From: a virus
IMG/VR virus record: IMGVR_UViG_3300010160_002125
Coordinates: 3,352-67,351 of that record
Reading direction: 5' to 3' (one strand)
Length of the DNA: 64,000 nt
The notes under the pieces were generated by a model. That model searched no databases. It was not told the origin of the DNA and saw nothing but the letters and a program-made list of their open reading frames with translations. The position numbers and the translations under genes are program-made. This document shows, piece after piece, positions 3,099 through 26,460 of the stretch. Position 1 is the first letter of the stretch; each line of letters begins with the position of its first letter.

Positions 3099-3385
3099 CT
3101 AATTAAAAACATAGTGATCTGCTTTTCATTCTTAAACTTCCACACATTAAAACTCATGCGTGTTCCACAATTACATTCGGTAGTCCATGCTTGTACAGGA
3201 TCCATATCTGACTCGTTGATTCCACGTTCAAGGTCGCCACGGGCAGATATTTCATCTGTATAGGCTTGTAGTTTGAGTCCAGGTAGGCGTTGCCATTTGA
3301 TTTTAGGTTTTAATCCCATTCTGTCGTAGAAGGATTTAAGTATATCAGCAACGTGTGATTTACCCATCTGTCTCCCATGCATCAT
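3086..3385 (-). CDS. hypothetical protein, WFxLRW family
   Basis: C-terminal FKNEKQITMFLIRWSS. Confidence 0.7.
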   Translation of the reverse strand: MMHGRQMGKSHVADILKSFYDRMGLKPKIKWQRLPGLKLQAYTDEISARGDLERGINESDMDPVQAWTTECNCGTRMSFNVWKFKNEKQITMFLIRWSS

Positions 3386-9602: not shown

Positions 9603-10022
9603 ATGAAAAAACTCTTTTGGAACGTACTTGGATTTTTAAGTTTGGGAATGGCGTATGTCGGGCTTATCACACCCGGCATACCCTATAGCTGTTTTGTTGT
9701 ATTCGCCGCCTATTGCTTTAGCAAGGGCAACGAACGTATGCATCGATGGCTATACAATCACAAGATTTTTGGACCTTTCCTAACCAACTGGAACGAGAAA
9801 CGTGTGTTCCCTACTAAAATGAAGTTCTTTATGTTAGCTATGATGTCAAGTAGCCTTGGCATTATGTTCTTTACCAATGTACCTACTCGCGGTATTCTTT
9901 ACACAGGCATATTCATGTTCTTTGTTGCAGTATGGGCATGGCGTTGGCCAGGTAGCATAGAAGCCTACAACAAAAGAATAGCCGACGGTAAAAAGGTCGG
10001 CTGGTTCAATAACAGTTTTTAA
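9603..10022 (+). CDS. ybaN: YbaN/DUF454 inner-membrane protein
   Basis: GLITPGIP...F...AAYCF, HRWL, FGP motifs. Confidence 0.85.
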
Positions 10023-11209
10023 AACAGAGTTTTAAGAGCTTCGATTAAGTCTTCAATCATTCCATCATCATGTAACGGAGTAGGTGCAAAGCGCAACCGC
10101 TCCGTTCCCACATCTACTGTAGGATAATTGATTGGCTGTACATAGATGTTGTAGTCATTTAGCAAAGCATCGCTAATGGCCTTGCACTTTTTAGCATCAC
10201 CGACTAGCACAGGCACAATATGAGTGGTACTACACGACATCACAGGCAAGCCTACTTTGTCCAATCGATATTTTAATTTACGAGCACGGTCTTGATGCTC
10301 TACACGTAGTTCATTGTGATCTTTAAGATACTTGACGGCGGCTAATGCTCCTGCACAAGTAACAGGCGACATCGATGTAGTAAAGATAAAGCCGGCTGCA
10401 ACGCTACGAATAGCATCAACAACATCTGCATCAGCGGCAATGTATCCGCCCTGCACTCCAAACGCCTTTCCCAGGGTACCGTTAACTATGTCAACTCGAT
10501 GTTGTAAGCCCATCTGTTCTAGCTTGCCTCCTCCATGATCTCCGTACAGGCCAACTGCATGTACTTCATCAATGTAGGTCATTGCTTCATATTTGTCTGC
10601 TAGATCACAGATCTCTTTGATCAATCCCACATCACCATCCATTGAATAAACTGATTCAAAAGCAATGCAAGGCATGTGACCCAATGCTACTGCTTCTTTT
10701 AGTTTATCTTCTAGATCTTCCATATCATTATGACGGAATACACTCTTAGCCGCACGGCTATGTTGTATCCCTACAATCATTGAGTTATGATTGTTAGCAT
10801 CACTGATGTAATGTATGTTTGGAATAATCTTTGCTAGAGCAATAAATGTCCATTCGTTAGCAACATAGGCACTTGAGAATAACAAGGCAGAGGCCTTGTT
10901 ATGTAGTTTGGCCAATTCCATTTCTAATGCTACGTGATAATGACTGGTTCCGGCAATGTTACGAGTACCGCCTGATCCTGCACCAGTCATGTCCAGGGCA
11001 GTATGCATAGCATCTAGTACAACTTTATGTTGTCCCATGCCTAGATAGTCATTAGAACACCAATTGGTTATTGTTTTAATATTATATGGTCCATACCAAA
11101 TGGCCTGAGGGAACTTACCGTTCTCTCTTAGGATATCGTTGAATACACGATATTTGCCGCTGGTCTTGAGTGTTGTAAGTAATTCTGTAAATGGTTGTTT
11201 ATTAATCAT
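10019..11209 (-). CDS. hemA: 5-aminolevulinate synthase (PLP-dependent, Shemin pathway)
   Basis: [56 protein letters not shown]. Confidence 0.93.
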
Positions 11210-11249
11210 AGTAGTTTATTTACACTAAATATTCGCCTAGTCAAAATAT

Positions 11250-11278
11250 TTGACAACCTTCTAAATTTACTGTAGACT
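11250..11278 (+). promoter_or_regulatory. sigma70-like promoter TTGACA-N17-TAGACT at the island start
   Basis: consensus -35; TAAATA also present at 11226. Confidence 0.6.
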
Positions 11279-11299
11279 TACACATAGGATAAAAATAAT

Positions 11300-12043
11300 A
11301 TGATCGGAATTATAGGATACGGCATGGTGGGCAAGGCCGTAGAATACGGGTTCTCTAAAACAACCTGTATTATTTCAGACCCACAGTACAACACAACTAC
11401 AGTTAAAGACGTAGTAGCCGCAAATCCAGAAGCTATCTTTGTATGTGTACCTACACCAACAGATGAAACAAACTATGCTGTACTTAAACAAGTTCTTACC
11501 AATATTAAAAATGCACAGTATACAGGTATAACTGTAGTCAAAAGCACAATATTACCGCAATACTTAGAAGTATTTGATGTAGTATACAATCCTGAGTTTC
11601 TTTCTAGGGCTACCAGCCTAGAGGACTTTGTAAACCCGCCCTATGTTGTTATAGGCGGAAATAAAGCACCACAGGTCTTAGACATTTATCGCAAATACTC
11701 TACAGTAGACACTACTAATGCTTTTTTAGTTGACATCCCCACGGCCTGTATGGTTAAATACACTATGAATAGCTTTTATGCTTTGAAGGTGATATTTATG
11801 AACGGTATGTACGATGTTGCTGAACAAATGGGTGCAGATTGGACAAATGCAACTGCAATATTAGCCAAACACCCGTGGATGGGGTCGAATCATTATCAAG
11901 TACCCGGCACAGACGGAGAAAGAGGATTCGGCGGACCGTGTTTACCAAAAGATACCAAAGCACTGGCTAGCACATACGAGCTACCACTTTTAACCAAAGT
12001 GATAGAGTTGAATAACAAATATAGAAACATTAAGGAAAGATAA
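11300..12043 (+). CDS. UDP-glucose/GDP-mannose dehydrogenase family protein (no C-terminal domain)
   Basis: GYGMVG, VCVPTP, KST, NPEFL, GFGGPCLPKD. Confidence 0.88.
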   Translation: MIGIIGYGMVGKAVEYGFSKTTCIISDPQYNTTTVKDVVAANPEAIFVCVPTPTDETNYAVLKQVLTNIKNAQYTGITVVKSTILPQYLEVFDVVYNPEFLSRATSLEDFVNPPYVVIGGNKAPQVLDIYRKYSTVDTTNAFLVDIPTACMVKYTMNSFYALKVIFMNGMYDVAEQMGADWTNATAILAKHPWMGSNHYQVPGTDGERGFGGPCLPKDTKALASTYELPLLTKVIELNNKYRNIKER

Positions 12044-13149
12044 TGGTAATTGACCTAAACGTAACTAGTACTTGCAATCTAGCATGTACCTATTGCTCAG
12101 AAGGATTTGAATGCGGACTCAGTACGCAATTTGAAGAAAACACTTCCGTGACTCTAGAAAATATTGAAGAGTTTATGAGCAAGTTTAGTGACCCTAAACG
12201 AGACATTTACTTTTGGGGTGGCGAACCTTTTGTTAATTGGGAATTCTGTCGCGGTGTGATGGAAAAGTATATTGACAATCCTAACTATAACTTTTTCTTT
12301 TATACCAACGGTGTTTATCTAAAGAAGTATATGAAAGAGCTAGTACGTTTCCATCAATCCATGCCAGGCAGACTTAAAATACAGGTTAGCTATGACGGCA
12401 AACCAGTTAACGATATCACACGCATTGACAAGACAGGCAACCCAAGTAGCAGTTTGGTTAAATCAAATTATCTTGCAGCCAAGCAAGCTGGTCTAGCAGT
12501 TAAAATGAAATCAGTATTAACTGCTGAACACTTTCATCTAATCTACGAAGCTTTCTTAGATGTTATTACCCTAGACGAAAACTATTTTCCAACACCAGAT
12601 ATGTACAGTCATTTGACTGAGGAAGAGTTCATGCCTAGACTGGCAGTGCTCAACGAAGGGCTAGCCAAGATTGCCAAGTACATTTATCTAAACAAACTGC
12701 CTCCAGAAAAGTTTGGTTGGTTCACACAAAGTCGTGCCCTATGTGCTAGTGGTATTAACTATGTGTCAGTGGACCTCAACGGCGACATTAGTCCATGCCA
12801 TGGTTGTATGTACAAAGAAAGTCATGCACACGTAATGGGTAATATTCTTAAGGCGCCGGACATTGATGCGTTGATTGCAGAGAAAACAGCAATGTATAGA
12901 GATGCACTAAAGAATCAACCACTTGATTGTATGAGTTGTGATGCACAGTTCTGTATGAAGTGTAATGCGGCTACATATGAAAAATCAGAGAAAGACACTT
13001 ACTTAGAAAAGTGGAGTGATCATACTGCTAACTGGCAAGTGTGTAAGGTATTCAAGTCTAACGAGATTGTACACCATGCATTACGTACAGCTCTAAAGTC
13101 ATACAAGAAGCCAACTATTATTATCAAAGCGGAGCAATGTACAGTCTAA
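12043..13149 (+). CDS. radical SAM/SPASM protein
   Basis: CNLACTYC, WGGEP, SPASM CASG...PC and CxxC...C..C. Confidence 0.92.
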   Translation: MVIDLNVTSTCNLACTYCSEGFECGLSTQFEENTSVTLENIEEFMSKFSDPKRDIYFWGGEPFVNWEFCRGVMEKYIDNPNYNFFFYTNGVYLKKYMKELVRFHQSMPGRLKIQVSYDGKPVNDITRIDKTGNPSSSLVKSNYLAAKQAGLAVKMKSVLTAEHFHLIYEAFLDVITLDENYFPTPDMYSHLTEEEFMPRLAVLNEGLAKIAKYIYLNKLPPEKFGWFTQSRALCASGINYVSVDLNGDISPCHGCMYKESHAHVMGNILKAPDIDALIAEKTAMYRDALKNQPLDCMSCDAQFCMKCNAATYEKSEKDTYLEKWSDHTANWQVCKVFKSNEIVHHALRTALKSYKKPTIIIKAEQCTV

Positions 13150-13150
13150 T

Positions 13151-14275
13151 ATGTTTACACTAGAGATATCAGTAACAGAAAAATGTAACCTTGGGTGTCC
13201 ATATTGTTACGTGGCCAACCGTCCCACATGGATGGAACCTGAGACTTTTGATAATGCGATGCCCGAGCTTTATAATCTAATGAAGCGTAGCAACGACAGC
13301 GAGTTTCACGTTAGCTTCTTTGGTGGAGAGCCGTTACTTAATTGGGATTTAATCACCTACGCTGTACCAAAGCTAACAGCAGACCCTAAGTGCAAAGGCA
13401 TTAACATTATTACTAATCTAACAATGATTGATGCTGATAAAGCCAAATATCTAAAAGAACACGGAGTCGGAGTCAGTTGGTCATTTGACGGCATGAGTTC
13501 TAATACTACTCGTCCGTTATTACCTTTGTTAGAAAACACTAACCCAGAAACTGGAGAATTGTTTGACGGCATCCTTGACATGTATAATCACAAGAAGGAT
13601 ATCATTACAGATTTAACTAACGGTTGTAAGGTAATGATATGGCCCGGCAATACCAAAGACATGACAGAGAACTTTGAGTTCTTGTTAAGTTGGGGAATTG
13701 AACATCCAGACTTTTCTATTGTACGTGATGATGTATGGACAGAAGATGACCTGCATGAGTATCGTAGAGAACTAATTAGACTAACCGATTGTTATATTGC
13801 TAAACTAAAAGCAGGAATACCTTGTTCAGTTGGATTCCTACGTTTATCTATCTTAGACATCTTGTACGGATTGGTCAAAGGTAAACGCCCGTTTGGTTGC
13901 TTTGCCGGAACGCACGGCGGAGTATTAATGAGCAGTGGTGAGTTTTATCCTTGTGCTCGATTTGCATCTAAGAAGATTATGAAGATGGACAGTGACTATG
14001 ACTTCAAGTACTATCAAGACATATTCAACCCACAGAACTTTGACAAGTGCGAGCCTTGCCAATTAAAACAAGTTTGTAATGCAGGATGTACATACAGTCA
14101 AGTTACCAACGGCAACAAGCCCTTAGACAGTATCTGCGAAATCTTTCATATCACTAATGAGCAGGCCATGCGTGTTGTAGAAGAATGTAAAGATGTCCCA
14201 GTATTCCAAGATTTAATACTACACTACTTACAAAATGTTGGTGTAGAGAATGAAGGCGTGGAGTGTAGAAACTAA
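13151..14275 (+). CDS. radical SAM/SPASM protein
   Basis: CNLGCPYC, FFGGEPLL, CFAG...YPC...CEPC...CNAGC...C. Confidence 0.93.
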   Translation: MFTLEISVTEKCNLGCPYCYVANRPTWMEPETFDNAMPELYNLMKRSNDSEFHVSFFGGEPLLNWDLITYAVPKLTADPKCKGINIITNLTMIDADKAKYLKEHGVGVSWSFDGMSSNTTRPLLPLLENTNPETGELFDGILDMYNHKKDIITDLTNGCKVMIWPGNTKDMTENFEFLLSWGIEHPDFSIVRDDVWTEDDLHEYRRELIRLTDCYIAKLKAGIPCSVGFLRLSILDILYGLVKGKRPFGCFAGTHGGVLMSSGEFYPCARFASKKIMKMDSDYDFKYYQDIFNPQNFDKCEPCQLKQVCNAGCTYSQVTNGNKPLDSICEIFHITNEQAMRVVEECKDVPVFQDLILHYLQNVGVENEGVECRN

Positions 14276-14568
14276 TGAAAAGCATATTAAAGATCCCAGT
14301 TAAAGTTGAAATGGCTCCGGTAGAGCATGTTTCAGACCGTGTATTATCTGTAGACGAATTATCATTGCAAATTGAAGAAGCTCGCAAGGGCAAAGCTAAA
14401 GTTGATAGTCAGTATGTTGGATACGATGATCTTAATAGAGGTCACCTCTATGACTATAAGTTTGACTACGGACAATTTCTATCTAGTATGAGTCATATTA
14501 TTAGAGAAGCCAAGAGTCGTCCGCAAGACAACCGATATAAAAATTCACATGAGATGATTATCCAATGA
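14275..14568 (+). CDS. hypothetical protein
   Basis: 97 aa, translationally coupled between two rSAM genes. Confidence 0.7.
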   Translation: MKSILKIPVKVEMAPVEHVSDRVLSVDELSLQIEEARKGKAKVDSQYVGYDDLNRGHLYDYKFDYGQFLSSMSHIIREAKSRPQDNRYKNSHEMIIQ

Positions 14569-15437
14569 TACCTATTGTTAGTGAATTTTATGTAGGAGAT
14601 AAAACAGACAAACCTGCACCTGCAGGATCGGCTGTTAATGTTCTATATTTTACTAACAAGTGTAATTTGGCCTGTACCTATTGCTATGAAGACTTGCCAG
14701 GCCGACCGCCACAAATATTAACCAAAGAAGACATTGTCAAACACGTTGATGCTATCCTTGCTCGAGAAGATCCTAAAAGCCAAACACTAATTGTATTATT
14801 TGGCGGCGAGCCTACACTTGAATGGGAGAATGTTTGCTTTGCTATGGACTATGCTTTTAGTAAAAAACGTAATGTACATTTTAACATGACCACTAACGGT
14901 ATCAAATACCTAAGTCAAAACTTCATAGATGAAACTATGAACAACTTCTTTTATAAAAAAGGGCTGTTATCTATCGACGTTAGTTTTGACGGAGTTGGTA
15001 ACAAAGATCGAGTGTTTCATAATGGTACAGATAGTACAAAGAGCATGATTGAAGTGTTTACTAATTTAGTAAAAAATAAGTTTAGATATCGTATGCGTTA
15101 TACTATTCATAAGTTTAACATAAACTATGTGTATAAGGATATGACTAAGTTAATCAAAACGTTTAATCCAGAGCGTATGATTACTAGTGTAGCTTGGGAT
15201 ACCCTATCACCTAAGGATATTGAGAAGCTATCTGAGATTAAAAATCAGCTAAGAAATGACTGGATAAATAAAGCAGTATCTGTGCCTGTATGCGAATTAT
15301 TTTGCGACATGTGCAGTGGATGCGGTGAACGCAAAGAGTTAAAGACATATTTTACTAACGAGGGTAACGTAACAACCTATGGAAATTACGAAAACTCTCC
15401 AAAATTTCATGATTTTAAGGACAAAGAAATAAAATGA
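14565..15437 (+). CDS. radical SAM protein (short Cys-rich tail)
   Basis: CNLACTYC, FGGEP, TTNG, SFDG, C-terminal CELFCDMCSGC. Confidence 0.92.
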   Translation: MIPIVSEFYVGDKTDKPAPAGSAVNVLYFTNKCNLACTYCYEDLPGRPPQILTKEDIVKHVDAILAREDPKSQTLIVLFGGEPTLEWENVCFAMDYAFSKKRNVHFNMTTNGIKYLSQNFIDETMNNFFYKKGLLSIDVSFDGVGNKDRVFHNGTDSTKSMIEVFTNLVKNKFRYRMRYTIHKFNINYVYKDMTKLIKTFNPERMITSVAWDTLSPKDIEKLSEIKNQLRNDWINKAVSVPVCELFCDMCSGCGERKELKTYFTNEGNVTTYGNYENSPKFHDFKDKEIK

Positions 15438-15832
15438 CACAGATGACTATAAATGAAAAATTAGAAAAGATTCTAGAGATTATCAAACTTATGGAAGTTG
15501 AGGATGATCCGGGCGTTTCTACAATTATGTTAGATGGCTTCATCCTATCTATGAACATTATTAAAGAATTATCTGAACAGACTGAACCTGCTAACACTCT
15601 TGATATTTCTAAACAGATAGAAATGGTTACGTCAATTTTAGGTATTTCATTACATGATCTAGTTATGCAAATTATCAAAGAAATGAATGAGAATCAAGAG
15701 ATGCCTGATAAAGAAGTTGATAAAAACACTTTAGATTTTATTACATCGGCGGAGAATCTTGACGACTATGATAAGTTTCTAGCACAAGCTAAAGCCAAAG
15801 AAGATTTAGACTTTTTGTCAAAAGCAATTTAA
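15434..15832 (+). CDS. acidic helical hypothetical protein
   Basis: 132-aa coupled ORF. Confidence 0.7.
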   Translation: MTQMTINEKLEKILEIIKLMEVEDDPGVSTIMLDGFILSMNIIKELSEQTEPANTLDISKQIEMVTSILGISLHDLVMQIIKEMNENQEMPDKEVDKNTLDFITSAENLDDYDKFLAQAKAKEDLDFLSKAI

Positions 15833-15845
15833 GGAGATAGGAGCG

Positions 15846-16418
15846 ATGACGTTACCAACATTAGCGGCGGGCATAGTAAAAGACATATATGGCACGGATG
15901 CTTCTGATGCTGTAACACACGGGCTTACACCTGTTAATAATACTAACAAAACATCTGGTGCTATATTTTATAATATAGCACTAAAAGCCAATGCAGAAAG
16001 AGTGAGACGTGGTAAGTCGTCAGTTAATATCCCAACAGATTATTTTACTGGAAAGTTATATGCTAGTAAAATTCAAGAAATAAAAACAAATGTAGAAGTT
16101 ACAGGCCCTGCAGAAACTCAAGCATACAATACCAACTATGGCGGCGGATCCAATAGCGGCAATCCGCCAGCAGTGACCACATTCAGTCAACTGCCTGCAC
16201 CAAGCGGAGCATCTGATTTTGTAAAAGGTGCAAAAATAACCAGTGCTATTGTTAATGCATTGATTAATGAAATTAATGCCGCTGGTAACACATGTACTTG
16301 TAACTGCAACTATTGCACCTGCAACTGCAACTATTGCACCTGCAACTGCAACTACTCATGTACTTGTAATTGCAACTACAGTGATGAACAACTTAAAAGT
16401 CAAGTGGAGTACATATAA
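15846..16418 (+). CDS. Cys-rich (CTCNCNY)4 protein 1 with S74-like SDxxxK tail
   Basis: AAGGAG RBS; ERxRRG and QAYN motifs; ends ...CNYSDEQLKSQVEYI. Confidence 0.85.
   Translation: MTLPTLAAGIVKDIYGTDASDAVTHGLTPVNNTNKTSGAIFYNIALKANAERVRRGKSSVNIPTDYFTGKLYASKIQEIKTNVEVTGPAETQAYNTNYGGGSNSGNPPAVTTFSQLPAPSGASDFVKGAKITSAIVNALINEINAAGNTCTCNCNYCTCNCNYCTCNCNYSCTCNCNYSDEQLKSQVEYI
16293..16379 (+). repeat. degenerate 21-nt coding tandem repeat TGYACYTGYAAYTGYAAYTAY x4
   Basis: equivalent arrays at 17007-17093, 17652-17738 and 18285-18371; one extra codon before the 4th unit in each. Confidence 0.95.
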
Positions 16419-17132
16419 ATGGCATTACCAAGTTTTCCAATTAGGGCATTCGCCTCGGGCGGTAGTCATGCTCCTAACGGAAATCCAGCGTACCGAGCGC
16501 AAAATGGAATTATGTCATCTGTATACGGCACTACTACCGGTAAAACAGTCAGTTATAATATAGCCGAAGTAGCATCTACTGATTTGATGCGAGAAAACAA
16601 ATTACTAGATATAGCAAACAAGGCAGTATTGGAACGAACACGCCGAGGCGGATCAGCAATACAGATACCAGGTGGATATTTTAGTGGACAAATTTATGGT
16701 TCAAGAGTTCAAGATATTGTTAATGTATTACAAGTATCCGGACCCGATAATGAACAAGCATATAACGGTACAGGGCAGGGAACTAATTCTCCCTGGGGAT
16801 ATTATCAAACTGGTAATAATGTAACATATGATAATTATGGAAATCCTATTAACAATCCAGTATATTCAGCAGTAGCCGATCCAACCGCAGTAACTTACCC
16901 AAAAGCAGCCGCACCATCGGTTGGGGTATCATTCTCTAAGGGTGATCAAATATCATCGTTGAATATCAATACATTAATTAGAACAATTAATAATGCTGGC
17001 AATGTATGTACTTGTAACTGCAACTACTGCACTTGCAACTGCAACTATTGCACCTGTAATTGTAACTATGGCTGTACCTGTAACTGCAATTACAGTGACG
17101 AAAGAGTTAAGGCAGAAGTGGAGTACATGTAA
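16419..17132 (+). CDS. Cys-rich (CTCNCNY)4 protein 2
   Basis: paralogue; ends ...CNYSDERVKAEVEYM. Confidence 0.85.
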   Translation: MALPSFPIRAFASGGSHAPNGNPAYRAQNGIMSSVYGTTTGKTVSYNIAEVASTDLMRENKLLDIANKAVLERTRRGGSAIQIPGGYFSGQIYGSRVQDIVNVLQVSGPDNEQAYNGTGQGTNSPWGYYQTGNNVTYDNYGNPINNPVYSAVADPTAVTYPKAAAPSVGVSFSKGDQISSLNINTLIRTINNAGNVCTCNCNYCTCNCNYCTCNCNYGCTCNCNYSDERVKAEVEYM

Positions 17133-17777
17133 ATGGCATCCTTAACAGCAAGCCCATACGGATATAATGCATCAAACGCTGTATCGCCTATTGGCGGCTA
17201 TGTTGGTGCTGGAATGTTAATAAGTGGATCGCACATCCGTGTTATAGCAGAAGAGGCAATCGCTGAGCGAGTTCGTAGAGGCCAAGCCAATATTACTATT
17301 CCTCCAGGATATTATTCAGGAACAATTTCAGCTTCACGTCTTCAAGACGTTATTACAGTAGCATCAGTAGCAGGACCTGCTCAAACACAAGCATATAACG
17401 GAGCATGGCAAGGATATAACAGCTCTAACGGCTATTACGATACTGGAGGTCGTACACCAGTATATGACAATTATGGTAATCTGATTAGATACGATGTAGT
17501 CTATGCGTCATTACCGGCTCCAGAAATTGTTTACTACTATCAGCAAGGCGCACCAAATTTTTATGTATCATTTTCGAGTTTAGTTGGATCAACTATTAGT
17601 GCTAGTCATATAAACGAATTAATTAGTGGAATTAATGCGGCTAAAGCCGTTTGTACTTGTAACTGTAACTATTGCACCTGTAACTGTAACTATTGCACCT
17701 GTAACTGTAACTATGGCTGTACCTGTAACTGCAACTATAGTGATGAAAGAGTGAAGGCAGAGGTGGAGTACATGTAA
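17133..17777 (+). CDS. Cys-rich (CTCNCNY)4 protein 3
   Basis: paralogue; ends ...CNYSDERVKAEVEYM. Confidence 0.85.
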   Translation: MASLTASPYGYNASNAVSPIGGYVGAGMLISGSHIRVIAEEAIAERVRRGQANITIPPGYYSGTISASRLQDVITVASVAGPAQTQAYNGAWQGYNSSNGYYDTGGRTPVYDNYGNLIRYDVVYASLPAPEIVYYYQQGAPNFYVSFSSLVGSTISASHINELISGINAAKAVCTCNCNYCTCNCNYCTCNCNYGCTCNCNYSDERVKAEVEYM

Positions 17778-18410
17778 ATGTCGTTACCTACGATATCAGG
17801 ACTAACTACATCAGTATACGGCACTAATTCTAGTAACGCTGTAGGTTATAATATAGCCGAAGTAGCATCCACTGATTTGATGCGAGAAAACAAATTAATA
17901 GAGATTGCCAATAATGCTGTATCGGAACGAACACGGCGCGGTCAATCGGCAATACAGATACCAGGTGGATATTTTAGCGGAAGAATTTATGGCTCACGGG
18001 TACAAGATATTATTAATGTAGTACAAGTAGCTGGACCGGCGGCAACACAAGCATATAATGGCGCAGGACAGGGAACTAACAGTAGCGATGGAAGAGGCCC
18101 AATCATTGGATATACGCCCGGCCGCTTTAGACTCCCTATATACGGTCCTTTGGTACAACCAGAAGTAGTAACTTACCCACAAACTGCGGCGCCATCATTT
18201 GGGGTATCATTCTCTAAGGGAGATCAAATATCATCGTTGAATATTAACACATTAATTAGAACAATTAATAATGCTGGTGCAGCCTGCACCTGTAACTGCA
18301 ACTACTGCACCTGTAACTGCAACTACTGCACCTGTAATTGTAACTATGCATGTACCTGTAACTGCAATTATAGTGATGAACAAGTTAAAACTAACATAGA
18401 ATACATATAA
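17778..18410 (+). CDS. Cys-rich (CTCNCNY)4 protein 4
   Basis: paralogue; ends ...CNYSDEQVKTNIEYI. Confidence 0.85.
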   Translation: MSLPTISGLTTSVYGTNSSNAVGYNIAEVASTDLMRENKLIEIANNAVSERTRRGQSAIQIPGGYFSGRIYGSRVQDIINVVQVAGPAATQAYNGAGQGTNSSDGRGPIIGYTPGRFRLPIYGPLVQPEVVTYPQTAAPSFGVSFSKGDQISSLNINTLIRTINNAGAACTCNCNYCTCNCNYCTCNCNYACTCNCNYSDEQVKTNIEYI

Positions 18411-18676
18411 TGAGTTTAGAAAAAATAAAACAGCTTCGACCCGCAGAGCATATATACACAGACAGCACAAAAGGTGATACTGTACGTAAAACTATGAGCT
18501 GTATGGCACAGAATATAAACGAGATTTGGCCAATAGAAAAATACACTATTTTGGAAAAAGACAAGGACGGTTACTTTATTGTTGCCAATCCGCATCAGTT
18601 AATTTTTCCATTGATCAAAGCAGTACAAGAATTATCTGAGGAAATTGAAAGGTTAAAAAATGAAAGAACTAAGTGA
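18410..18676 (+). CDS. stand-alone C-terminal part of a peptidase S74 / intramolecular chaperone domain
   Basis: LEKIKQLRP...MAQNINEIWP...DGY...LIFPLIKAVQELSEEIERLK matches the S74 body and its terminal coiled coil. Confidence 0.8.
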   Translation: MSLEKIKQLRPAEHIYTDSTKGDTVRKTMSCMAQNINEIWPIEKYTILEKDKDGYFIVANPHQLIFPLIKAVQELSEEIERLKNERTK

Positions 18677-19070
18677 ATATAAAGAAGTTGAAGGTATTCC
18701 AGCTAGCACTTATGCGGGCAAAGCAGCCAAGGCAGTTAAAACTAAAGCTCGCGGAATCCTAGGAGACGATTTATTAATTTTTAAATTAATAGATTTTGTT
18801 TCTTTTATGTTGCTTAATAATAAGTTTGCCAACAAAGGGATTTTTATCACCGATGATAACAAAGAAGAGTGTTATATCAAAATAATTGAAGCAGGCGACG
18901 AATCTTTAATTACAGACCTTGAAAGATATATTTCTTTAAAAGATGATATTAAAGCTATCGAGGCTAATAAAGCAGAGTACCAGGAAATTATCAAAAAATT
19001 GCAATTACTGCCTGATCAAAACGACGAAAATGCTGTAAATAAGATAGTAGAAGACTATCTAAGGAGATAA
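18660..19070 (+). CDS. hypothetical protein (possible assembly accessory)
   Basis: 136-aa helical ORF overlapping the chaperone gene. Confidence 0.7.
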   Translation: MKELSEYKEVEGIPASTYAGKAAKAVKTKARGILGDDLLIFKLIDFVSFMLLNNKFANKGIFITDDNKEECYIKIIEAGDESLITDLERYISLKDDIKAIEANKAEYQEIIKKLQLLPDQNDENAVNKIVEDYLRR

Positions 19071-19071
19071 T

Positions 19072-20130
19072 ATGTTAGTAATTTTAAGTGGTGTAGAAAC
19101 CATACACAAGAAATTTTTTGCAAGGAAAATAGTTTCGACTTTAAATAAGTTCACTATTGACGGGTACGATGTTGATTTCAGCGTTGAACCATTTAAAGTT
19201 ACAGATGCTAACGGGAAAATAGTTTACTGCATGGCTCACGGCGAGCAGCCAGCAACTAACGAGTTATTAGTTGATCTAGATAATGACGGAGTAATTGACC
19301 CAGAAGGCAATGCAACGTTTGAAAAAATTATAGAGTTAAGCGATAAATTATTTTTAGATGGGGGCCGAGATAATCACTTTTACGGTATGTTTATTAATAT
19401 AGCCTATGATCTTGGTCTAAGAGACACTTTGACTTTTTTAGAAACTGCTGATCCAAATATCCCAACACTTCTACATCCCCATACCTACAACGATGTTTTA
19501 GAAAACTATAGAAATAGAATAGGTTCTACACATGTTATCACTGGCATTTTTTCTAAAGGATTTATTGACAGAATTAAAAATGACATTGGCGCAGAAAATG
19601 TAATTGCATTAAACATAATACGTAATCCGTCTGTATGCTGTTTACTACATGAAAAAAGTGCAGATTATTATGCAAATCCTGAGAAAGACATAACTCCTGA
19701 AATAGATGCAACAAAATTAAGACAGTCGTTAGTTAACGCTGTCATTTTATCAAAATCTTCAGATGTTATTACCCTTAAATTTGAAGACATTATTCGCGAA
19801 GGAAAATTTAGACTTAACGGAGTTGACATTGAAGTGCCGTTTGGGTATACACCATATCTTGATTGGTTGACAGCATGGGAAAAAGACAACGTAATTCCTC
19901 TAAAAATTGTATCAGAAGAAACATTAGATGCGTTCAATGCAGAGTTTCAAAACTTTGCGTCTGGAAAAAGTGCTGAACTGACTGAAGAAGATGCAAGTTT
20001 AAATAATGCTTTTAGAGCTGACCCAATATCTTTGGATGAGCTTAAAACACTATATGTTGAAAAAATGCCAGAAAATCTGTTTGATGCATTAGGTTATGAT
20101 TCATTGACTATTGAAGAGATAACAGAATAA
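19072..20130 (+). CDS. sulfotransferase-like P-loop protein
   Basis: IIRNP and LKFED motifs; paralogue of the next gene. Confidence 0.55.
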   Translation: MLVILSGVETIHKKFFARKIVSTLNKFTIDGYDVDFSVEPFKVTDANGKIVYCMAHGEQPATNELLVDLDNDGVIDPEGNATFEKIIELSDKLFLDGGRDNHFYGMFINIAYDLGLRDTLTFLETADPNIPTLLHPHTYNDVLENYRNRIGSTHVITGIFSKGFIDRIKNDIGAENVIALNIIRNPSVCCLLHEKSADYYANPEKDITPEIDATKLRQSLVNAVILSKSSDVITLKFEDIIREGKFRLNGVDIEVPFGYTPYLDWLTAWEKDNVIPLKIVSEETLDAFNAEFQNFASGKSAELTEEDASLNNAFRADPISLDELKTLYVEKMPENLFDALGYDSLTIEEITE

Positions 20131-20136
20131 AACATA

Positions 20137-20949
20137 ATGCTTGTTATTTTAAGTTGTGCTGAAACTTTTAAAAAAACAAACTTATCGGCCATAATACATT
20201 CAGCACTAAACAATCTAACTAGTGATCAACTCACCTTAGATTCTTTTTATCAAAATCAATTAGATCTTGCTGAACAATTTAATTATAGAATGTTGTTCAG
20301 AGCATTACCATTTGATTTTGGTGTAGAAAGTCAAGTGCGATTTCCTGAAGGCGGTAATTACGCTAAGTTTTTAAAAGACTATCATAACAGAAGTCATCCA
20401 TACCATGTAATTTGCGGAAGTTTTTCTAAGATATTTTGTGATATGGCTAGGAACGATATACCCAATACCGAAGTAGTTAACATAACTAGACACCCATCTA
20501 CAGCATATGTTTTAGATACAATAGCATATGATTCTTTAGCCCCTTATAATACTAATATGGGATTAAAGTTGTTTAAGAAACGATTCAATTCGTCTATACT
20601 ACAACAAATTAATTTAAAGAACTATGTTCGAACTATCAAGTTTGAAGATATGATAGCCTCTCAATCAATTAGAGTATTTGGTCAATTGATTAATCTAACA
20701 GATTTTTATAAATCATACAACCAATGGTTAACTGTGAAAGAGTACACAGAACTAATCCCACAATATAAATTAACCGATGAAGATCTTGATAAATTTAATC
20801 AAGCATACTTGCGATTTAATGAAACATGGCCAAACGGTCGTGATGATATGATAGCAGAAATAATACCAAAACTACCTCAAAATATTTTTAGTGAGTTAGG
20901 CTACACTAGTCTAACTTACGAGGAAATTTTAAATGACAACCATACTTAA
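20137..20949 (+). CDS. sulfotransferase-like P-loop protein (paralogue)
   Basis: MLVILS.. start, ITRHP, IKFED and LGY..LT.EEI shared with 19072..20130. Confidence 0.55.
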   Translation: MLVILSCAETFKKTNLSAIIHSALNNLTSDQLTLDSFYQNQLDLAEQFNYRMLFRALPFDFGVESQVRFPEGGNYAKFLKDYHNRSHPYHVICGSFSKIFCDMARNDIPNTEVVNITRHPSTAYVLDTIAYDSLAPYNTNMGLKLFKKRFNSSILQQINLKNYVRTIKFEDMIASQSIRVFGQLINLTDFYKSYNQWLTVKEYTELIPQYKLTDEDLDKFNQAYLRFNETWPNGRDDMIAEIIPKLPQNIFSELGYTSLTYEEILNDNHT

Positions 20950-21856
20950 TACCAAACAATACGATCTAGTGTTTGCCACATCATTTGAAACAGTACACGG
21001 AGTCACCGGCCATGTATTTGAAATGATTGAATACTGTTTTATGTGTAGACGCAACGGTATTAATGCGGCTATAGCTTTATTAGACGGTACAGATATTAGT
21101 CTAGTAATAGGACTACTAACTTCAAAGTATAATTTTAATCAAGAAGAAGTTGCAGACCTAACAGCAAATATAATAGTGTTTACACACCCTAAAATTATAT
21201 TAGCCAACAATTTTTGCATAGTTGACGGTTCACCTCGAGTCAATGGCTGTACCATTTACGCAGACAATGTATTTTTATTAAGATGCTACGACGGAGAACT
21301 AGATTTCTTTTCTAACAATAAGTCTATTAAACGTACTCATCTACTTCAAGATTTTTCAATGTACCCTGAACGATACGAGCATTTAAACATTGAAGTAATC
21401 GACTATAATAAAAAATTACTATGGGATAGGTATCATAAACCTAAGACAGTTAAAACTAATACAGCTATGTTTTATATGATGAATAGATGTAAAGCAAGAC
21501 CTGTTGATGAAGTTGCAGGGTATATTGCTAAACACACATTTGACCATTATCTTATAATAACAGATATTCCAGAACGATATCAAAGTTTAAAATCTAATCA
21601 AGTATCAATTGAAGTTGTGCCAGTTGACAATTTATTTGAAAAGTTTGACACATACATTTATACTCCAGTGACCAAAGTAGATTGCAGTCCTAGATTTATG
21701 GTTGAGTGTGCGGCATTTGGTAAAGATATCATTTACGAAATTGACTATTTAGATCCTGGAATTTTAGCAAGACAACGAGGAATAGAAGCCGGAGTAGAAA
21801 CGCTGTTGTTAAAAGATAATGACCCCTTCATCAAATACGTAAATAGATGTCTATGA
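20933..21856 (+). CDS. hypothetical protein, glycosyltransferase-like
   Basis: C-terminal FDTYIYTP...SPRFMVECAAFGK resembles the GT-B donor-binding region. Confidence 0.5.
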   Translation: MTTILNTKQYDLVFATSFETVHGVTGHVFEMIEYCFMCRRNGINAAIALLDGTDISLVIGLLTSKYNFNQEEVADLTANIIVFTHPKIILANNFCIVDGSPRVNGCTIYADNVFLLRCYDGELDFFSNNKSIKRTHLLQDFSMYPERYEHLNIEVIDYNKKLLWDRYHKPKTVKTNTAMFYMMNRCKARPVDEVAGYIAKHTFDHYLIITDIPERYQSLKSNQVSIEVVPVDNLFEKFDTYIYTPVTKVDCSPRFMVECAAFGKDIIYEIDYLDPGILARQRGIEAGVETLLLKDNDPFIKYVNRCL

Positions 21857-22929
21857 GTCAAACAATAATTCCCCGTCCAAGAAATAACGCCCTTAATGAA
21901 ATGAGCGTTCAGGGCATCGTGATGGATACAATTACACCGCAATGTAATCGAGCCAAACTTAACACAGGTACATTTTGCAACTATGACTGTGAGTTTTGCT
22001 ATTATACAGATCTTCTGGATGTAAAAACTCCGTTTGAAGTAGTCAAAGAGCGAGCAGACTATCTTAGAGATTACGGCATTACCGAAGTAGATCTAAGCGG
22101 CGGCGAAAGCTCTGTTAGTCCAGATTGGTTTAGAATATTAGACTATTGCAATGAAAACTTTGAGCATGTTAGTTGTCTTAGCCACGGCGGCCGTTTTAGT
22201 AATATAGAATTTTTAAAAGAAAGTCAAGACCACGGCTTGAAAGAAATACTGTTTAGTCTGCACGGTGCTACTAGTGAAGCGCACGACACAATCACACGCC
22301 GCAAGGGATCTTTTAACAGAATAGTCCAAGCTATTAAAAATGCCAAAGAATTAGGCATCGTTGTTAGAATTAATTCTACTGTCTATTACAAAAATTATTT
22401 CCAGTTGGCCAATGAATATGCTGATCTAATCAATGAACTTAATCCCTTAGAAGTAAACTTTATCACACTAAATTATTGGGAAGGCGTCAGGATTGAAAAA
22501 GAAAATGTCACCTATGCAGACATGACTGAACAAATAAAACGGTGTATAGATCGTTTGAATAAAAAAATAGTGATTAATGTTCGATTTGTGCCTTACTGTT
22601 ATATGGAAGGCTATGAGAAGTATGTGTGCGATCAGTATCAGCACATTTATGATCCGTGGGACTGGAATAGGGCAATGTTAACAGACGAGTTTGATCCCGA
22701 CATAGACACTACAAAAACTTATTCAGAAGAAGAAAAACTAGCGTTTGCTCATAAACAATGTGCCAGTCATAGGAATAGATTTTATAGAAAAGAGTTGAGT
22801 TGTTTAAAATGCAAGTATTTTTATATATGCGATGGCATTGAAAATGAAATAGCAGGTACTCCAGTTTATCCAGTTGACGGAGAAAAGATCAAAGAAGTTA
22901 CTTTCTTTAGAAAAGATCATTTCAAATGA
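21847..22929 (+). CDS. radical SAM protein with C-terminal CxxC...C cluster
   Basis: CNYDCEFC, LSGGE, PYC, CLKCKYFYICDG. Confidence 0.92.
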   Translation: MSMSQTIIPRPRNNALNEMSVQGIVMDTITPQCNRAKLNTGTFCNYDCEFCYYTDLLDVKTPFEVVKERADYLRDYGITEVDLSGGESSVSPDWFRILDYCNENFEHVSCLSHGGRFSNIEFLKESQDHGLKEILFSLHGATSEAHDTITRRKGSFNRIVQAIKNAKELGIVVRINSTVYYKNYFQLANEYADLINELNPLEVNFITLNYWEGVRIEKENVTYADMTEQIKRCIDRLNKKIVINVRFVPYCYMEGYEKYVCDQYQHIYDPWDWNRAMLTDEFDPDIDTTKTYSEEEKLAFAHKQCASHRNRFYRKELSCLKCKYFYICDGIENEIAGTPVYPVDGEKIKEVTFFRKDHFK

Positions 22930-23615
22930 AACTGTCTATACTAATACTAACACACAATCGTCCAAAATTATTTAACCGTTGCTTAGAAAGTGTATTAGAT
23001 CAAATAACTCCAGACATAGAAATTCTTGTCAACAATGACAGTTGTGATATTGAAGAAATTGTTCATCCACAGGTAAAATACTATTACCATAATCCAAACA
23101 GTCTATGTGAAATATATAAATTTTTATTAGAGTTAGCACAAGGAGAATATGTTTATTATCTAGAAGATGATGACTATTTGACTAAAGATTTCCTATCAAT
23201 CAATTTGGATGCAGATTTAATTACAGGTAACTATTACCCTACTTATAAAACAACTGATATACTAATCAGCATGACCATGTACAAAGATGCACACATGAAT
23301 AGCCAACAGTTTATAGCTAATCTTAACACTGAAAATCTACAACTATCTCAGCACATATACAAACGTAGTCATATAGAAGATTTTGATTTTCCAATGGATA
23401 GTAACATACACAATGATATTAGATTAACACTACACGCGGCCTCAAAAGCTAAAACTATACATACTTTGAATAAAGTATTCTTTTATCAAACTACTGACGG
23501 TAGAGACAATATTTCTTTTCCTGAGTCAATCAGCAGGGTAAATATAACGAAATCCCTAAACTTTTTGGAAAACTATGAAATATTCGGTACAACACCACGT
23601 ACAACAAGATCCTGA
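22926..23615 (+). CDS. glycosyltransferase family 2
   Basis: SILILTHNR, ILVNND, GEYVYYLEDDD. Confidence 0.88.
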   Translation: MKLSILILTHNRPKLFNRCLESVLDQITPDIEILVNNDSCDIEEIVHPQVKYYYHNPNSLCEIYKFLLELAQGEYVYYLEDDDYLTKDFLSINLDADLITGNYYPTYKTTDILISMTMYKDAHMNSQQFIANLNTENLQLSQHIYKRSHIEDFDFPMDSNIHNDIRLTLHAASKAKTIHTLNKVFFYQTTDGRDNISFPESISRVNITKSLNFLENYEIFGTTPRTTRS

Positions 23616-24474
23616 TCACATCAATGTGCATTGGGATACTCTTACCATTTGTCAGCTTAACTGTACCTATTGTTATGCTAGGAATACCTACGGTAAAGAA
23701 TGGGGTAAACTATCAAGCAAAGAAACTATTGACGGAGTAATTGAAGCACTTAATAGAAGTAGCTTGCCGTTCAATTTGGGACTGTTAGGTGGCGAACCCA
23801 CCCTTGGCCCGCACTATTATTATGTGCTTGATGAAATATCTAAATTAGAAAAGTTTAAATGGGTATATGTTGTTACCAATGCCGAGAAAGACTTTACTAG
23901 CCATCCTCACTACGATAAAGTAGCATTTCTTTTTAGTTATCATCCGGCAGATTGCACAAACAGAGATCGATTTGTTGACAATATGAAACTGATGATCAGT
24001 CGAGGATACCCTTGCAAAATAAATGTAATACTGCACCACGGCAAACAGTATTGGCCGCTGATCAAAGAAATGTTTGATATTTGTGCCAACATACCAGGAC
24101 TGAAAGTACATCCGCATTTCTTATACGGCAACAAAATGGACAAGTTGTTTAACTACCGAAAAGACTTTTGGGAATATTTTAGCTTCCTAAAAGACTTTGA
24201 AAGAGATCTTCAGTACGATGACGATGTGTTCAATGACTATGAAGTCTACAGCCAAAAGCTAACTGACTTTTACGGTTGGGATTGTTATAACAATAACTAC
24301 GAAGTTGATGTTCGTGGCAATGTAGTACAGTTCTGCATGAATGAACTAGGCGGCATAAGTTTATTAAAAGATCCTGATTTCTTTAAACGATTAGAAAAAA
24401 CTGTCCCTATTACTTGTCCTCATAAACAATGTAACTGCGACGGGCTATTAAAACAGTTAAAGGTTAAAAAATGA
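23575..24474 (+). CDS. radical SAM protein
   Basis: CQLNCTYC, LGGEPT, C-terminal C...C...CPHKQCNC. Confidence 0.9.
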   Translation: MKYSVQHHVQQDPDHINVHWDTLTICQLNCTYCYARNTYGKEWGKLSSKETIDGVIEALNRSSLPFNLGLLGGEPTLGPHYYYVLDEISKLEKFKWVYVVTNAEKDFTSHPHYDKVAFLFSYHPADCTNRDRFVDNMKLMISRGYPCKINVILHHGKQYWPLIKEMFDICANIPGLKVHPHFLYGNKMDKLFNYRKDFWEYFSFLKDFERDLQYDDDVFNDYEVYSQKLTDFYGWDCYNNNYEVDVRGNVVQFCMNELGGISLLKDPDFFKRLEKTVPITCPHKQCNCDGLLKQLKVKK

Positions 24475-25220
24475 AAGTAGAATGGGAAATAACTTTAAAA
24501 TGTAATTACAGTTGTTTCTATTGTACTAACCTTGACCAGACTTTGAATGTAGTTATGGACAAAGATATTATTAGGGCGTTTATTAAAGATTTAGGAGAAA
24601 CATACCCCGGAGTTGAAATATTTGTATTTGGTGGAGAACCATTTATACATCCGCACATCGAATTTATTATTGAATGCTTTAATGAATTTTCAGTACCGTT
24701 TGTAATACAAACAAACTTTAGTAAAAAATCAGTAGCTGTAATGAAAAGAATCACTGAAAAATTTACCATACAAATATCTATACATCCTACAGAAGTTAGA
24801 TTAGACCAGTTAGATGAGTTATTTAAAACACAAGCAAATATACGAGTAATTGATGTAATGTATACAGGCAAAGAAGCTATACAATATTATTTTAAAGTCA
24901 AAGAACTTGTAGAGTGTGATCATTTGTTCCTAACACCAATTACTGACTTTGGTGATGGCAAGTCAAATGATATACTAAAAGAATATACTAACCTACGATT
25001 AAATTCTCCCTATTCTAAATTTATTAACTTTGAAGATATTGTAAGACAAGGCGAACAAAGGTCTATTGTTTGGTTAAATGATAAGTTTAGCCCTAGAGGC
25101 AAACCTTGTTTGTACAATGGAACTTATTTTTTATATGGGCCAAACTTAGAACTTTATAACTGTTGCTATAGAGTAAAACATAATGGCATATGCGAGCACG
25201 ATAAATGTTTCCTGATGTAG
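24471..25220 (+). CDS. radical SAM protein
   Basis: CNYSCFYC, FGGEP, C-terminal C..CC..C..C. Confidence 0.9.
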   Translation: MKVEWEITLKCNYSCFYCTNLDQTLNVVMDKDIIRAFIKDLGETYPGVEIFVFGGEPFIHPHIEFIIECFNEFSVPFVIQTNFSKKSVAVMKRITEKFTIQISIHPTEVRLDQLDELFKTQANIRVIDVMYTGKEAIQYYFKVKELVECDHLFLTPITDFGDGKSNDILKEYTNLRLNSPYSKFINFEDIVRQGEQRSIVWLNDKFSPRGKPCLYNGTYFLYGPNLELYNCCYRVKHNGICEHDKCFLM

Positions 25221-25657
25221 ACATACAAAAACGTTTGATAGCATATTATCAAACAACTACCAATCAATCTGCTAACACAGTATTGGCATATATCAAGCTG
25301 AATAGACGTGTAGTAGACATGCATTTAGGTAGGCATACATTAAAAGAAATGATGTTAAATTATAGAACATTATATAATCCAAAAAAGAAAGATAAGATTG
25401 TATCAGATTTTAAAAAATATATAATAGACAAAGAAACACATCATAAAAGTGATTTAGCAATAGCTTTTAACATTATTAAACATGTGAATCTTACCGCTAA
25501 TGAAGAAGAACAAATTATTAATTTTATGTTTGATCGATTGCAATCAAGTTTAAAAAATACTAATTTATCAAAAGCAGAAAGCGTTTATTTTTTTAAAAAA
25601 CAATTGATTATGGAGTACGTTGAAACAAACGTTATAACTAGGAAAATTAAAACATGA
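25205..25657 (+). CDS. hypothetical protein
   Basis: 150-aa coupled ORF. Confidence 0.65.
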   Translation: MFPDVDIQKRLIAYYQTTTNQSANTVLAYIKLNRRVVDMHLGRHTLKEMMLNYRTLYNPKKKDKIVSDFKKYIIDKETHHKSDLAIAFNIIKHVNLTANEEEQIINFMFDRLQSSLKNTNLSKAESVYFFKKQLIMEYVETNVITRKIKT

Positions 25658-26460
25658 GATACTTACTAGCAGGTGCATTTTCTAGATCAATAGCACTGAT
25701 AAAATTTTTAGGTCAATATAACGGAACAGCCGAGCTTGTTGTCTATGACGGTATAAACAAATGTAGATGGAATGGCGGACGAATTAATAGAGACATCGGA
25801 TACACTGATGGCCTAATTAATTATTATTACAGTAAGGGAATAAAAATTGCCCTTACTATGACCAATCATAAGATTAACTTAGATGATGAAACAGGTAATC
25901 ACCTCCTTGAGAAATTTCATAAAGAAGGAAACTGTATCATATTAATTAATGACGAACTTAGAGCTTATATTCGAAAAAACTTTCCCAAGTACAAATTAAT
26001 ATTCAGTATTACAGGAATGGGTCTATTAAACATTCCCTTACAAGACAGCGATATTGCTTTTTATAAAGATTTAGAAAGCAAGTATGATTGGATAGTTCCT
26101 AGATTTGAACACATTTTTGATCCTCGAGCAGTTGAACTTGATCGAACCAAATGGGAAGTAATGGTCAACGATACTTGCGTATGGGGATGTAAATATTTTG
26201 ACGAACATTTTAAAGCTATCGCAGATGAAAATACCGCGGGCAGGCCGTATAGTGTAGAAGTAGAAGAATGTTGGCTTCCAAAATTCAATCCGGATATTCC
26301 TAGCAAATATAACTGTATGGATATTGATGAAGAGCATCTTAATAAACTAATGGGCCTTGGTGTACAAAGTTTTAAAATCACTGGCAGAGAGATGAAAGAC
26401 GATCAATATTTTGTAGAATTATTTAGATATGTAAAAGAACGCCATCATGCAGTTGTATAA
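25654..26460 (+). CDS. peptidase U32-like (Fe-S) protein
   Basis: EVMVNDTCVWGC...H...C and FKITGR motifs. Confidence 0.65.
   Translation: MRYLLAGAFSRSIALIKFLGQYNGTAELVVYDGINKCRWNGGRINRDIGYTDGLINYYYSKGIKIALTMTNHKINLDDETGNHLLEKFHKEGNCIILINDELRAYIRKNFPKYKLIFSITGMGLLNIPLQDSDIAFYKDLESKYDWIVPRFEHIFDPRAVELDRTKWEVMVNDTCVWGCKYFDEHFKAIADENTAGRPYSVEVEECWLPKFNPDIPSKYNCMDIDEEHLNKLMGLGVQSFKITGREMKDDQYFVELFRYVKERHHAVV

Follow-up and report, generated by a model that had tools for sequence, protein, structure and literature searches.

A phage gene module linking three radical-SAM enzymes to cysteine-heptad proteins with a split Peptidase_S74 chaperone

We analyzed a 64,000-nucleotide (nt) stretch of viral DNA, positions 3,352 to 67,351 of IMG/VR record IMGVR_UViG_3300010160_002125 (hereafter the window), in which genes for three radical S-adenosylmethionine (SAM) enzymes, rS1, rS2 and rS3, lie upstream of four tandem genes, p1 to p4, whose products carry a C-terminal array of Cys heptads. 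The source record spans 67,351 bp, with a CheckV completeness estimate of 19%. Since contigs bearing homologs of the repeat proteins reach 346 and 364 kb (P0088/P0091 and P0106), the source is probably a very large phage. Every gene from 11300 to 34791 is on the + strand, with tight packing. A sequence-only reading, made before any database search, had described a radical-SAM trio upstream of four Cys-array proteins of ~200 amino acids (aa), and the open reading frames (ORFs) at 12043-15437 and 15846-18410 bear this out. The genes of the module are as follows.

12043-13149, + strand: rS1, 368 aa; radical-SAM enzyme lacking an N-terminal recognition domain; C-terminal Cys pattern of SPASM type
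13151-14275, + strand: rS2, 374 aa; radical-SAM enzyme with CX2CX5CX3C, the best conserved of the trio
14275-14568, + strand: o97; small protein without Cys, encoded between rS2 and rS3
14565-15437, + strand: rS3, 290 aa; radical-SAM enzyme, shorter than the other two; a single four-Cys cluster at the C-terminus
15434-15832, + strand: o132; acidic helical protein, immediately 5' of the repeat genes
15846-16418, + strand: p1, 190 aa; array at 16293-16379, then a 12-aa Peptidase_S74 (S74) stub; phrog_26958, E 8.4e-12
16419-17132, + strand: p2, 237 aa; array at 17007-17093, then a 12-aa S74 stub; phrog_26958, E 4e-11
17133-17777, + strand: p3, 214 aa; array at 17652-17738, then a 12-aa S74 stub; phrog_26958, E 1.1e-12
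17778-18410, + strand: p4, 210 aa; array at 18285-18371, S74 stub at 18372-18407
18410-18676, + strand: o88, 88 aa; remainder of an endosialidase-type (Peptidase_S74) chaperone domain, as a protein of its own
18660-19070, + strand: o136, 136 aa; helical; encoded after the repeat genes or the chaperone gene in each of the two locus types described below

The o88 start codon overlaps the p4 stop codon (junction TAATG). A promoter and terminator scan of 11000-19500 gave results indistinguishable from those of shuffled sequence.

Proteins p1 to p4 each contain exactly 12 Cys, every one of which falls inside the array. Three contiguous CTCNCNY heptads are followed by one spacer residue (S/G/G/A), a fourth CTCNCNY, and the tail SDExxKxx(V/I)EY(I/M). 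The sequence-only reading had described an invariant, fourfold CTCNCNY array with 12 Cys; the Cys count and the invariance of the heptads stand, while strict contiguity does not, as the spacer separates the fourth heptad from the third. It had also held that array variation is almost wholly synonymous. Among the four 87-nt arrays, 19 nt vary, 16 of them at synonymous third positions and the other 3 in the spacer codon, in agreement with that claim. At the protein level, 28/28 heptad codons per array are the same and 16/16 heptads in the window are identical. Over their whole length, p2 to p4 share only 50-53% identity with p1. Synonymous-only variation within the heptads of proteins this divergent demonstrates strong purifying selection on each heptad residue, rather than recent duplication.

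As single sequences, p1 to p4, o97, o132 and o88 matched nothing in Pfam or NCBIfam at E≤0.01. The AlphaFold2 monomer model of p4 (79 sequences) had a mean predicted local distance difference test score (pLDDT) of 78.6, and ten-residue blocks over residues 21-170 averaged 72-98; Foldseek searches of the PDB and BFVD with this model returned no match at E≤0.001.

A nucleotide search with 12043-18676 and a protein search with p4 found zero matches in 50,697 phage records; the array is probably masked there by the low-complexity filter. A motif scan of IMG/VR and a search with a Campylobacter phage locus supplied the relatives instead. A p4 search recovered 658 proteins at E≤0.001, and a profile search recovered 287 representatives (50% identity), 221 of these at E≤1e-10, ranging from ~350-kb metagenomic phages to cultured Campylobacter phages. 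Heptad statistics were drawn from the best 150 of the 287 representatives, which hold 790 heptads. Here T occupies position 2 in 76% of the units, N, D or Q position 4 in 96%, N position 6 in 93% and Y position 7 in 93%. In the family alignment the Cys are absolutely conserved in a CxCxC pattern. These 150 proteins carry 3-18 heptads each, and arrays of up to 28 units occur in the viral loci. Adjacent units are separated by no residue at 363 junctions, by one residue at 251 and by more at 26, a variable 0-1-residue spacing more in keeping with self-contained units than with a strict structural period. The array was also found within proteins of 380-850 aa that have other domains. Most family members have a conserved E-x-x-R-R-G helix upstream of the array, with E50 and R53 invariant and R51 and R54 nearly so; a looser version of this pattern is present in 122/150 representatives.

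The cultured carriers are Campylobacter phages of the CP220/CPt10/CP21 group. The accessible part of Timms et al. 2010 (PMC2853527) describes a 21-bp repeat inside CPT_0180/CPt10_1891, without connecting it there with radical-SAM genes, and gives 11-12 radical-SAM genes for CP220 and CPt10. The CPt10 homolog has as its neighbor a gene annotated 'RNA ligase and tail fiber protein attachment catalyst' and lies close to the genes for the tail sheath and tube. Among 185,579 species genomes, only three loci with a relative were found, all on contigs of bacterial metagenome-assembled genomes (MAGs; L054, L055 and L056). Genes of rS type also lie close to the relative in two of these, L055 (from a Chloroflexota MAG) and L056; the three loci may represent prophages or phage contigs that were binned into MAGs.

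The tail that follows the array had been taken from sequence alone as a tail-fiber chaperone signal, and this signal proved real: SDExxKxx(V/I)EY(I/M) corresponds to the opening strand of a Peptidase_S74 domain whose remainder is encoded by the separate 88-aa gene. Residues S199, D200 and K204 of the S-D-x-x-x-K signature are ≥90% conserved (79 sequences), and the signature is present in all four paralogs. Fused homologs carry a Peptidase_S74 domain after the array, as in P0014, which matches PF13884 with 31.7 bits (cut-off 22) starting directly behind it. The signature was found in 102/150 representatives, and only the first ~12 residues of the domain are left in 74/150; these stub-type repeat proteins are followed by a separate small ORF that matches PF13884 from profile position ~16. 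The same split, with ~12 residues (SD..K...Y) on the repeat protein and a separate gene of 88-100 aa, is seen at L023, L026, L029, L031 and L042. Within the o88 family, 7/7 members match PF13884 at E≤1 (best 2.6e-9), and o88 of the window itself scores 15.9 bits against the cut-off of 22. The family profile matches PDB entries 3gud, 7dc3, 8jov and 3gw6, and the family also matches the C-terminal ends of PHROG tail-fiber families. PDB sequence searches with o88 alone and with P0014 gave nothing useful.

A model of three p4 and three o88 chains placed o88 on p4 residues 195-210, with a score of 0.68 compared to 0.02 for the best control. The mark used for such models was reached by 58/80 solved complexes and 2/110 mismatched pairs; here, runs agreed in ≥63% of contacts and the partner pLDDT was ≥81. 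Solved structures exist for the domain of which this is a split form, and the passing score may therefore mirror nothing beyond that resemblance. The S74 homology, the PHROG tail-fiber ends, the complex model and the fused protein P0014 nonetheless strengthen the earlier view of a fiber with its chaperone, and a virion location of the repeat protein is plausible on the basis of the S74 and PHROG tail-fiber ends and of the CPt10 context. A single copy of o88 follows the four paralogs in the window, which we read, from homology and modeling, as an 'intramolecular' S74 chaperone that would have become shared and trans-acting for all four. In one relative, P0147, the array is followed not by S74 but by residues 104-194 with a Hint_2 match of 27.2 bits (cut-off 28.4). 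A Hint-like domain after the array of P0122 was suggested by eye only, with no Pfam match. If these Hint-like domains are real, different autoproteolytic domains can follow the array.

All three enzymes pass the 29.5-bit cut-off of PF04055 (Radical_SAM), with 45.5 (rS1), 50.4 (rS2) and 52.4 bits (rS3) and respective E values of 1.2e-11, 3.7e-13 and 9.1e-14, and a CxxxCxxC cluster motif is visible in each. Two of them had been credited with full SPASM Cys patterns. By eye, rS2 has CX2CX5CX3C, and it aligns with the whole C-terminus of PapB and CteB-type enzymes, but it gave no match to Pfam SPASM (PF13186) at E≤0.01, and rS1 reached 21.2 bits against a cut-off of 21.5. The C-terminus of rS3 holds a single CX3CX2CX2C cluster. 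The top NCBIfam model for all three was PapB (NF047865), at 66.8, 130.2 and 88.0 bits for rS1, rS2 and rS3, respectively. None meets the cut-off of 340 bits, so that they resemble the family rather than belong to it, although rS2 covers almost the whole model (4-316 to 5-319 of 330). Behind PapB came the SCIFF maturase, QhpD, nif11-type, HxsB/HxsC and other peptide-maturase models, all below cut-off. The best solved structural relative was 5wgg (E 2.8e-10 for rS1 and 3.4e-13 for rS2), which we take to be the thioether-forming CteB. Residues 6-329 of rS2 align to 101-431 of the 5wgg chain. Since the alignment begins near chain residue 100, the phage enzymes lack the N-terminal recognition domain of 5wgg; they begin right at the cluster motif. 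Judged by these matches, the nearest families of rS1 to rS3 (PapB, SCIFF maturase and QhpD) are thioether-forming, and we regard the three as candidates for work-alikes of thioether-forming maturases that stand outside all named families.

Radical-SAM proteins from 21 of the loci, 108 in all, were placed in a FastTree tree, a quick method for which near-identical loci were removed by hand. In it, rS1, rS2 and rS3 separated into clades of 18, 18 and 15 rows with Shimodaira-Hasegawa-like support of 99, 99 and 95, respectively. Each clade includes members of both locus types. The three group together (support 90), apart from the phages' other radical-SAM genes; some long branches in the tree are marked unsure. 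The topology indicates three old paralog clades that remained associated with the repeat protein when the gene order changed. The two orders comprise the same parts, rS1-rS2-o97-rS3-o132-REP (where REP is the repeat protein), as in the window, and rS2-x-rS3-rS1-REP in divergent loci, where the repeat gene begins 0-15 bp past rS1.

It had been proposed that co-occurrence of CTCNCNY-type repeats with these enzyme clades be examined across phage genomes, and the linkage holds in both directions and among distant phages. A viral scan seeded with the Cys motif alone yielded 37 loci with 26 distinct repeat-protein sets. A radical-SAM gene lies within 2.4 kb in 23/26 sets and within 523 bp in 20/26; within 5 kb, all three clades are represented in 17, two in 2, one in 4 and none in 3. 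The 17 include L013/L016, in which rS3 is split in L013 and intact in L016. For the converse scan, a single rS2 sequence found only close relatives among viral contigs, and an alignment of rS2 homologs was used instead, yielding 76 loci with 61 distinct rS2 homologs. A protein with ≥3 heptads lies within 8 kb of 31/39 homologs at ≥35% identity to rS2, compared to 2/22 below 35%. The eight exceptions at ≥35% are two truncated loci (L068 and L108), L074, L088, three Campylobacter phages whose repeat gene is located elsewhere in the genome, and L096/L101, where the array is shorter and degenerate. This two-way co-occurrence spans loci whose enzymes are only 36-57% identical. The enzyme clades nearby showed no pattern with the residues at heptad positions 2, 4, 6 and 7 (26 loci).

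Taken together, these findings support the earlier interpretation in part, through a strong linkage, and led us to favor, at about an even chance, a reading in which the three enzymes introduce covalent modifications into the Cys heptads of a fiber protein that is trimeric and folded by S74. Within the infected cell, rS1 to rS3 would act on the heptads, most likely by forming crosslinks from Cys to side chains as thioethers inside each heptad, which offers three Cys to three enzymes. Position 4 (Asn, Asp or Gln), position 6 (Asn) and position 7 (Tyr) supply candidate partners of the Cys: three residues downstream of both C1 and C3 lies an Asn or Asp, and C5 is followed by Asn-Tyr. Given the variable 0-1-residue spacing, each heptad would be a self-contained crosslinked unit. 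The 12-residue tail SDExxKxxxEY would pair with the separately encoded 88-aa remainder of S74, and the S74 parts would drive trimer folding and then be cut off before the Ser, leaving a mature trimer with the crosslinked Cys array as its free C-terminal end. Modification is preferred over plain metal binding because the non-Cys positions are conserved and because three specific enzyme clades stay faithful to the repeat protein.

A fuller version of the same reading is one that we advance only tentatively and consider somewhat doubtful. It envisages a three-enzyme pathway placing up to three crosslinks per heptad, of the type found in peptides synthesized ribosomally and modified post-translationally (RiPPs), to give a covalently laddered, redox-proof fiber needle, with the split trans-acting S74 chaperone serving four fibers. 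This would be the first peptide-natural-product chemistry in the building of a virus particle.

Several observations weigh against modification by the trio. Enzymes rS1 to rS3 score far under the curated cut-offs of every named maturase family in NCBIfam. No RiPP recognition element (PqqD-like) was found in the enzymes, nor in o97, o132 and o136, using Pfam, NCBIfam and PHROG, with a fold search for o136 only. The p4 array (residues 175-204) has a pLDDT of <50 and no confident AlphaFold2 structure. Three repeat-protein sets (L014/L015, L030 and L026) are without a nearby radical-SAM gene. In L014/L015 and L030 there is none on the whole record, these records being an estimated 9-23% complete; in L026 the repeat gene sits at the contig start, so that its upstream side is missing, and eight radical-SAM matches lie farther along the record. 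In the Campylobacter phages, the nearest radical-SAM gene is 2.3 kb off and the rS2 homolog is elsewhere in the genome. The L063 locus keeps all three enzymes, and o97, o132 and o136 are also intact, but its repeat gene is a 71-aa N-terminal remnant (10665-10880); two contigs with an identical rS2 protein carry the full repeat gene. Finally, the window holds seven radical-SAM genes within 16 kb rich in modification enzymes, such that some proximity to the repeat genes would be expected there.

We next consider whether the heptads might instead remain unmodified and serve as a metal-thiolate or Fe-S core of the trimeric fiber (nine Cys per layer), or as a cluster reservoir or donor for the radical-SAM enzymes, with linkage reflecting a shared Fe-S or metal supply or co-regulation. 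This we consider unlikely. A precedent exists in the T4 long-tail-fiber tip, where metal ions are held in the core by repeated His motifs. The absolute conservation of Cys as CxCxC would suit such a role, as would an Fe-S_biosyn (IscA/HesB-type) gene inside one related module (L022:6194-6523, Pfam E 9.7e-16, between rS2 and the o97 homolog) and the many radical-SAM genes per phage, seven in the window and, in the accessible text of PMC2853527, 11-12 in CP220 and CPt10. Binding alone, however, leaves the near-invariant Asn 6, Tyr 7 and N/D/Q 4 unexplained. Neither does it explain why three particular clades, and not other radical-SAM genes, stay directly adjacent through rearrangement, and the S74 chaperone indicates a fiber rather than a metabolic carrier.

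It is also conceivable, if rather improbable, that p1 to p4 are true RiPP precursors, with a ~170-aa N-terminal leader and a 29-aa core array, from which a crosslinked peptide would be released as a metallophore, toxin or signal in infection rather than built into the virion. The better matches of the enzymes include models for nif11-type and other long-leader maturases, the conserved E-x-x-R-R-G helix before the array could be a recognition site, and a self-cleaving domain follows the array in some relatives (the S74 signature in 102/150, and the sub-cut-off Hint_2 match of P0147). A RiPP precursor is short, though, and its leader is removed, whereas the targets here measure 190-237 aa, have a folded N-terminal domain (confidently modeled over blocks 21-170, pLDDT 72-98) and show only a C-terminal cleavage signal (S74). 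No leader protease or exporter was found in the conserved module using Pfam and PHROG. In addition, the N-terminal domain diversifies among the tandem paralogs as receptor-binding proteins do, S74 domains typify trimeric fibers and spikes, and arrays also lie within proteins of 400-850 aa. Least credible, and already disfavored, is that the adjacency is functionally meaningless, with the array a disulfide-rich or Cys-rich structural repeat and the radical-SAM genes part of a neighboring sugar or small-molecule modification island: the 19-34 kb interval does hold more radical-SAM genes, a GT2 glycosyltransferase, a 2-oxoglutarate (2OG)-Fe(II) oxygenase, a halogenase-like enzyme, epimerases and a cytidylyltransferase, and a UDP-glucose dehydrogenase-like gene immediately precedes rS1, but co-occurrence is two-way across the 36-57%-identical enzymes and both gene orders, and the repeat gene directly follows rS1 in the divergent loci.

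Covalent modification of the heptads by the trio has parallels among known systems. As in a RiPP pathway, the putative precursor gene adjoins its putative modifying enzymes, and does so across genomes. Known radical-SAM/SPASM maturases act on small peptides that are secreted and on a few subunits of enzymes. The ranthi- and sactipeptide maturases PapB (freyrasin) and CteB (SCIFF) likewise combine a SPASM-type radical-SAM enzyme with an adjoining, repeated Cys-rich target. The phage system differs in its far-sub-cut-off scores, the absence of an N-terminal recognition domain, the use of three enzymes rather than one, and a target that is a folded, phage-encoded protein of ~200 aa with a new C-x-C-x-C-N-Y unit. 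QhpD is a radical-SAM/SPASM enzyme that places several Cys thioethers in a protein subunit, not a secreted peptide. The model for this enzyme of the quinohemoprotein amine dehydrogenase system (QhpD/QhpC), quino_hemo_SAM, is among the top matches (E 1e-14 for rS1 and 2.7e-20 for rS2), at 54 and 72.5 bits, respectively, against a cut-off of 453; the target, the phage-fiber/S74 context and the repeat motif all differ. CXXX-repeat, Cys-every-fifth and CcpM orphan maturases of NCBIfam also pair periodic Cys peptides with SPASM maturases, and their models match below cut-off. Their targets are short bacterial peptides, none of which, judged by model names, has the CxCxCNY unit.

The closest published parallel found is HXS. 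As described in the accessible part of the source (PMC13128918), the radical-SAM enzymes HxsB and HxsC mature the HxS-repeat protein HxsA, a protein effector. Common to both systems are more than one radical-SAM enzyme and a short-tandem-repeat protein as the known or proposed target, and HxsB/HxsC models are among the matches of rS2 and rS3. HXS is, according to the same text, a bacterial anti-phage defense with a periplasmic effector and His-x-Ser repeats, whereas the present system is phage-encoded, with a Cys repeat and a fiber-type chaperone. The endosialidase-type S74 domains of tail fibers and spikes share with the repeat proteins an SD..K signature immediately after the last structural residue. 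They differ in that the domain is split here: the paralogs keep the first ~12 residues and one gene encodes the rest, which would act in trans. A full-text literature search found no paper tying these repeats to radical-SAM enzymes, or radical-SAM maturation to a phage structural protein.

The linkage suggests that crosslinking chemistry of the peptide-antibiotic type is applied to a phage structural protein. If the heptads are indeed modified, they would represent a new crosslink motif together with three new enzyme clades, and a compact, genetically encoded route to rigid, thioether-stapled protein rods. Modification would also help explain the radical-SAM excess long noted in CP220-type phages, as given in the accessible part of PMC2853527. 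The split S74 holds interest of its own: it would be a naturally occurring 'intramolecular' chaperone that works in trans.

No Pfam, NCBIfam or PHROG match was obtained for o97; in window-type loci its homologs occupy the equivalent slot, and the ORFs that follow rS2 in divergent loci are other small helical ones. Likewise, o132 has no family match in these databases and is conserved only among window-type loci. Homologs of o136 are present in most loci, and o136 matches phrog_25260 (function unknown, E 1.5e-14). Its AlphaFold2 model is all-helical with a pLDDT of 88.1. Foldseek found no PDB match to it at E≤0.001, the ESM Atlas gave no usable match, and the best VIA-align Z of 7.6 is in the range expected of unrelated helical bundles.

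The genes that flank the module include the following.

10019-11209, - strand: class I/II aminotransferase-fold gene, upstream of rS1
11300-12043, + strand: short UDP-glucose/GDP-mannose dehydrogenase-like gene, directly preceding rS1 and in the same position in L063
35996-37321: gene for a protein with PA14/GLEYA and concanavalin-like lectin domains, preceding collagen-like and tail-fiber-like genes

Downstream, a same-strand island at 19072-34791 contains four more radical-SAM genes (at 21847, 23575, 24471 and 27283), the GT2 glycosyltransferase and 2OG-Fe(II) oxygenase, split transketolase-like parts, NAD epimerases/dehydratases, the cytidylyltransferase, a PIG-L deacetylase and a Trp-halogenase-like flavoenzyme (E 2.8e-59). 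This island looks like a sugar or small-molecule modification cluster. Lectin-like and tail-fiber-like genes occupy 36-44 kb, and the product of 35996-37321 is probably a carbohydrate-binding virion protein, judging from its domains.

One further feature was seen in divergent repeat proteins (L011, L018, L020, L023 and L040; P0125 and P0126), which have an N-terminal M-A-C-x-G-H-T together with extra C-x-x-H motifs. This N-terminus may be a second Cys/His-rich element.

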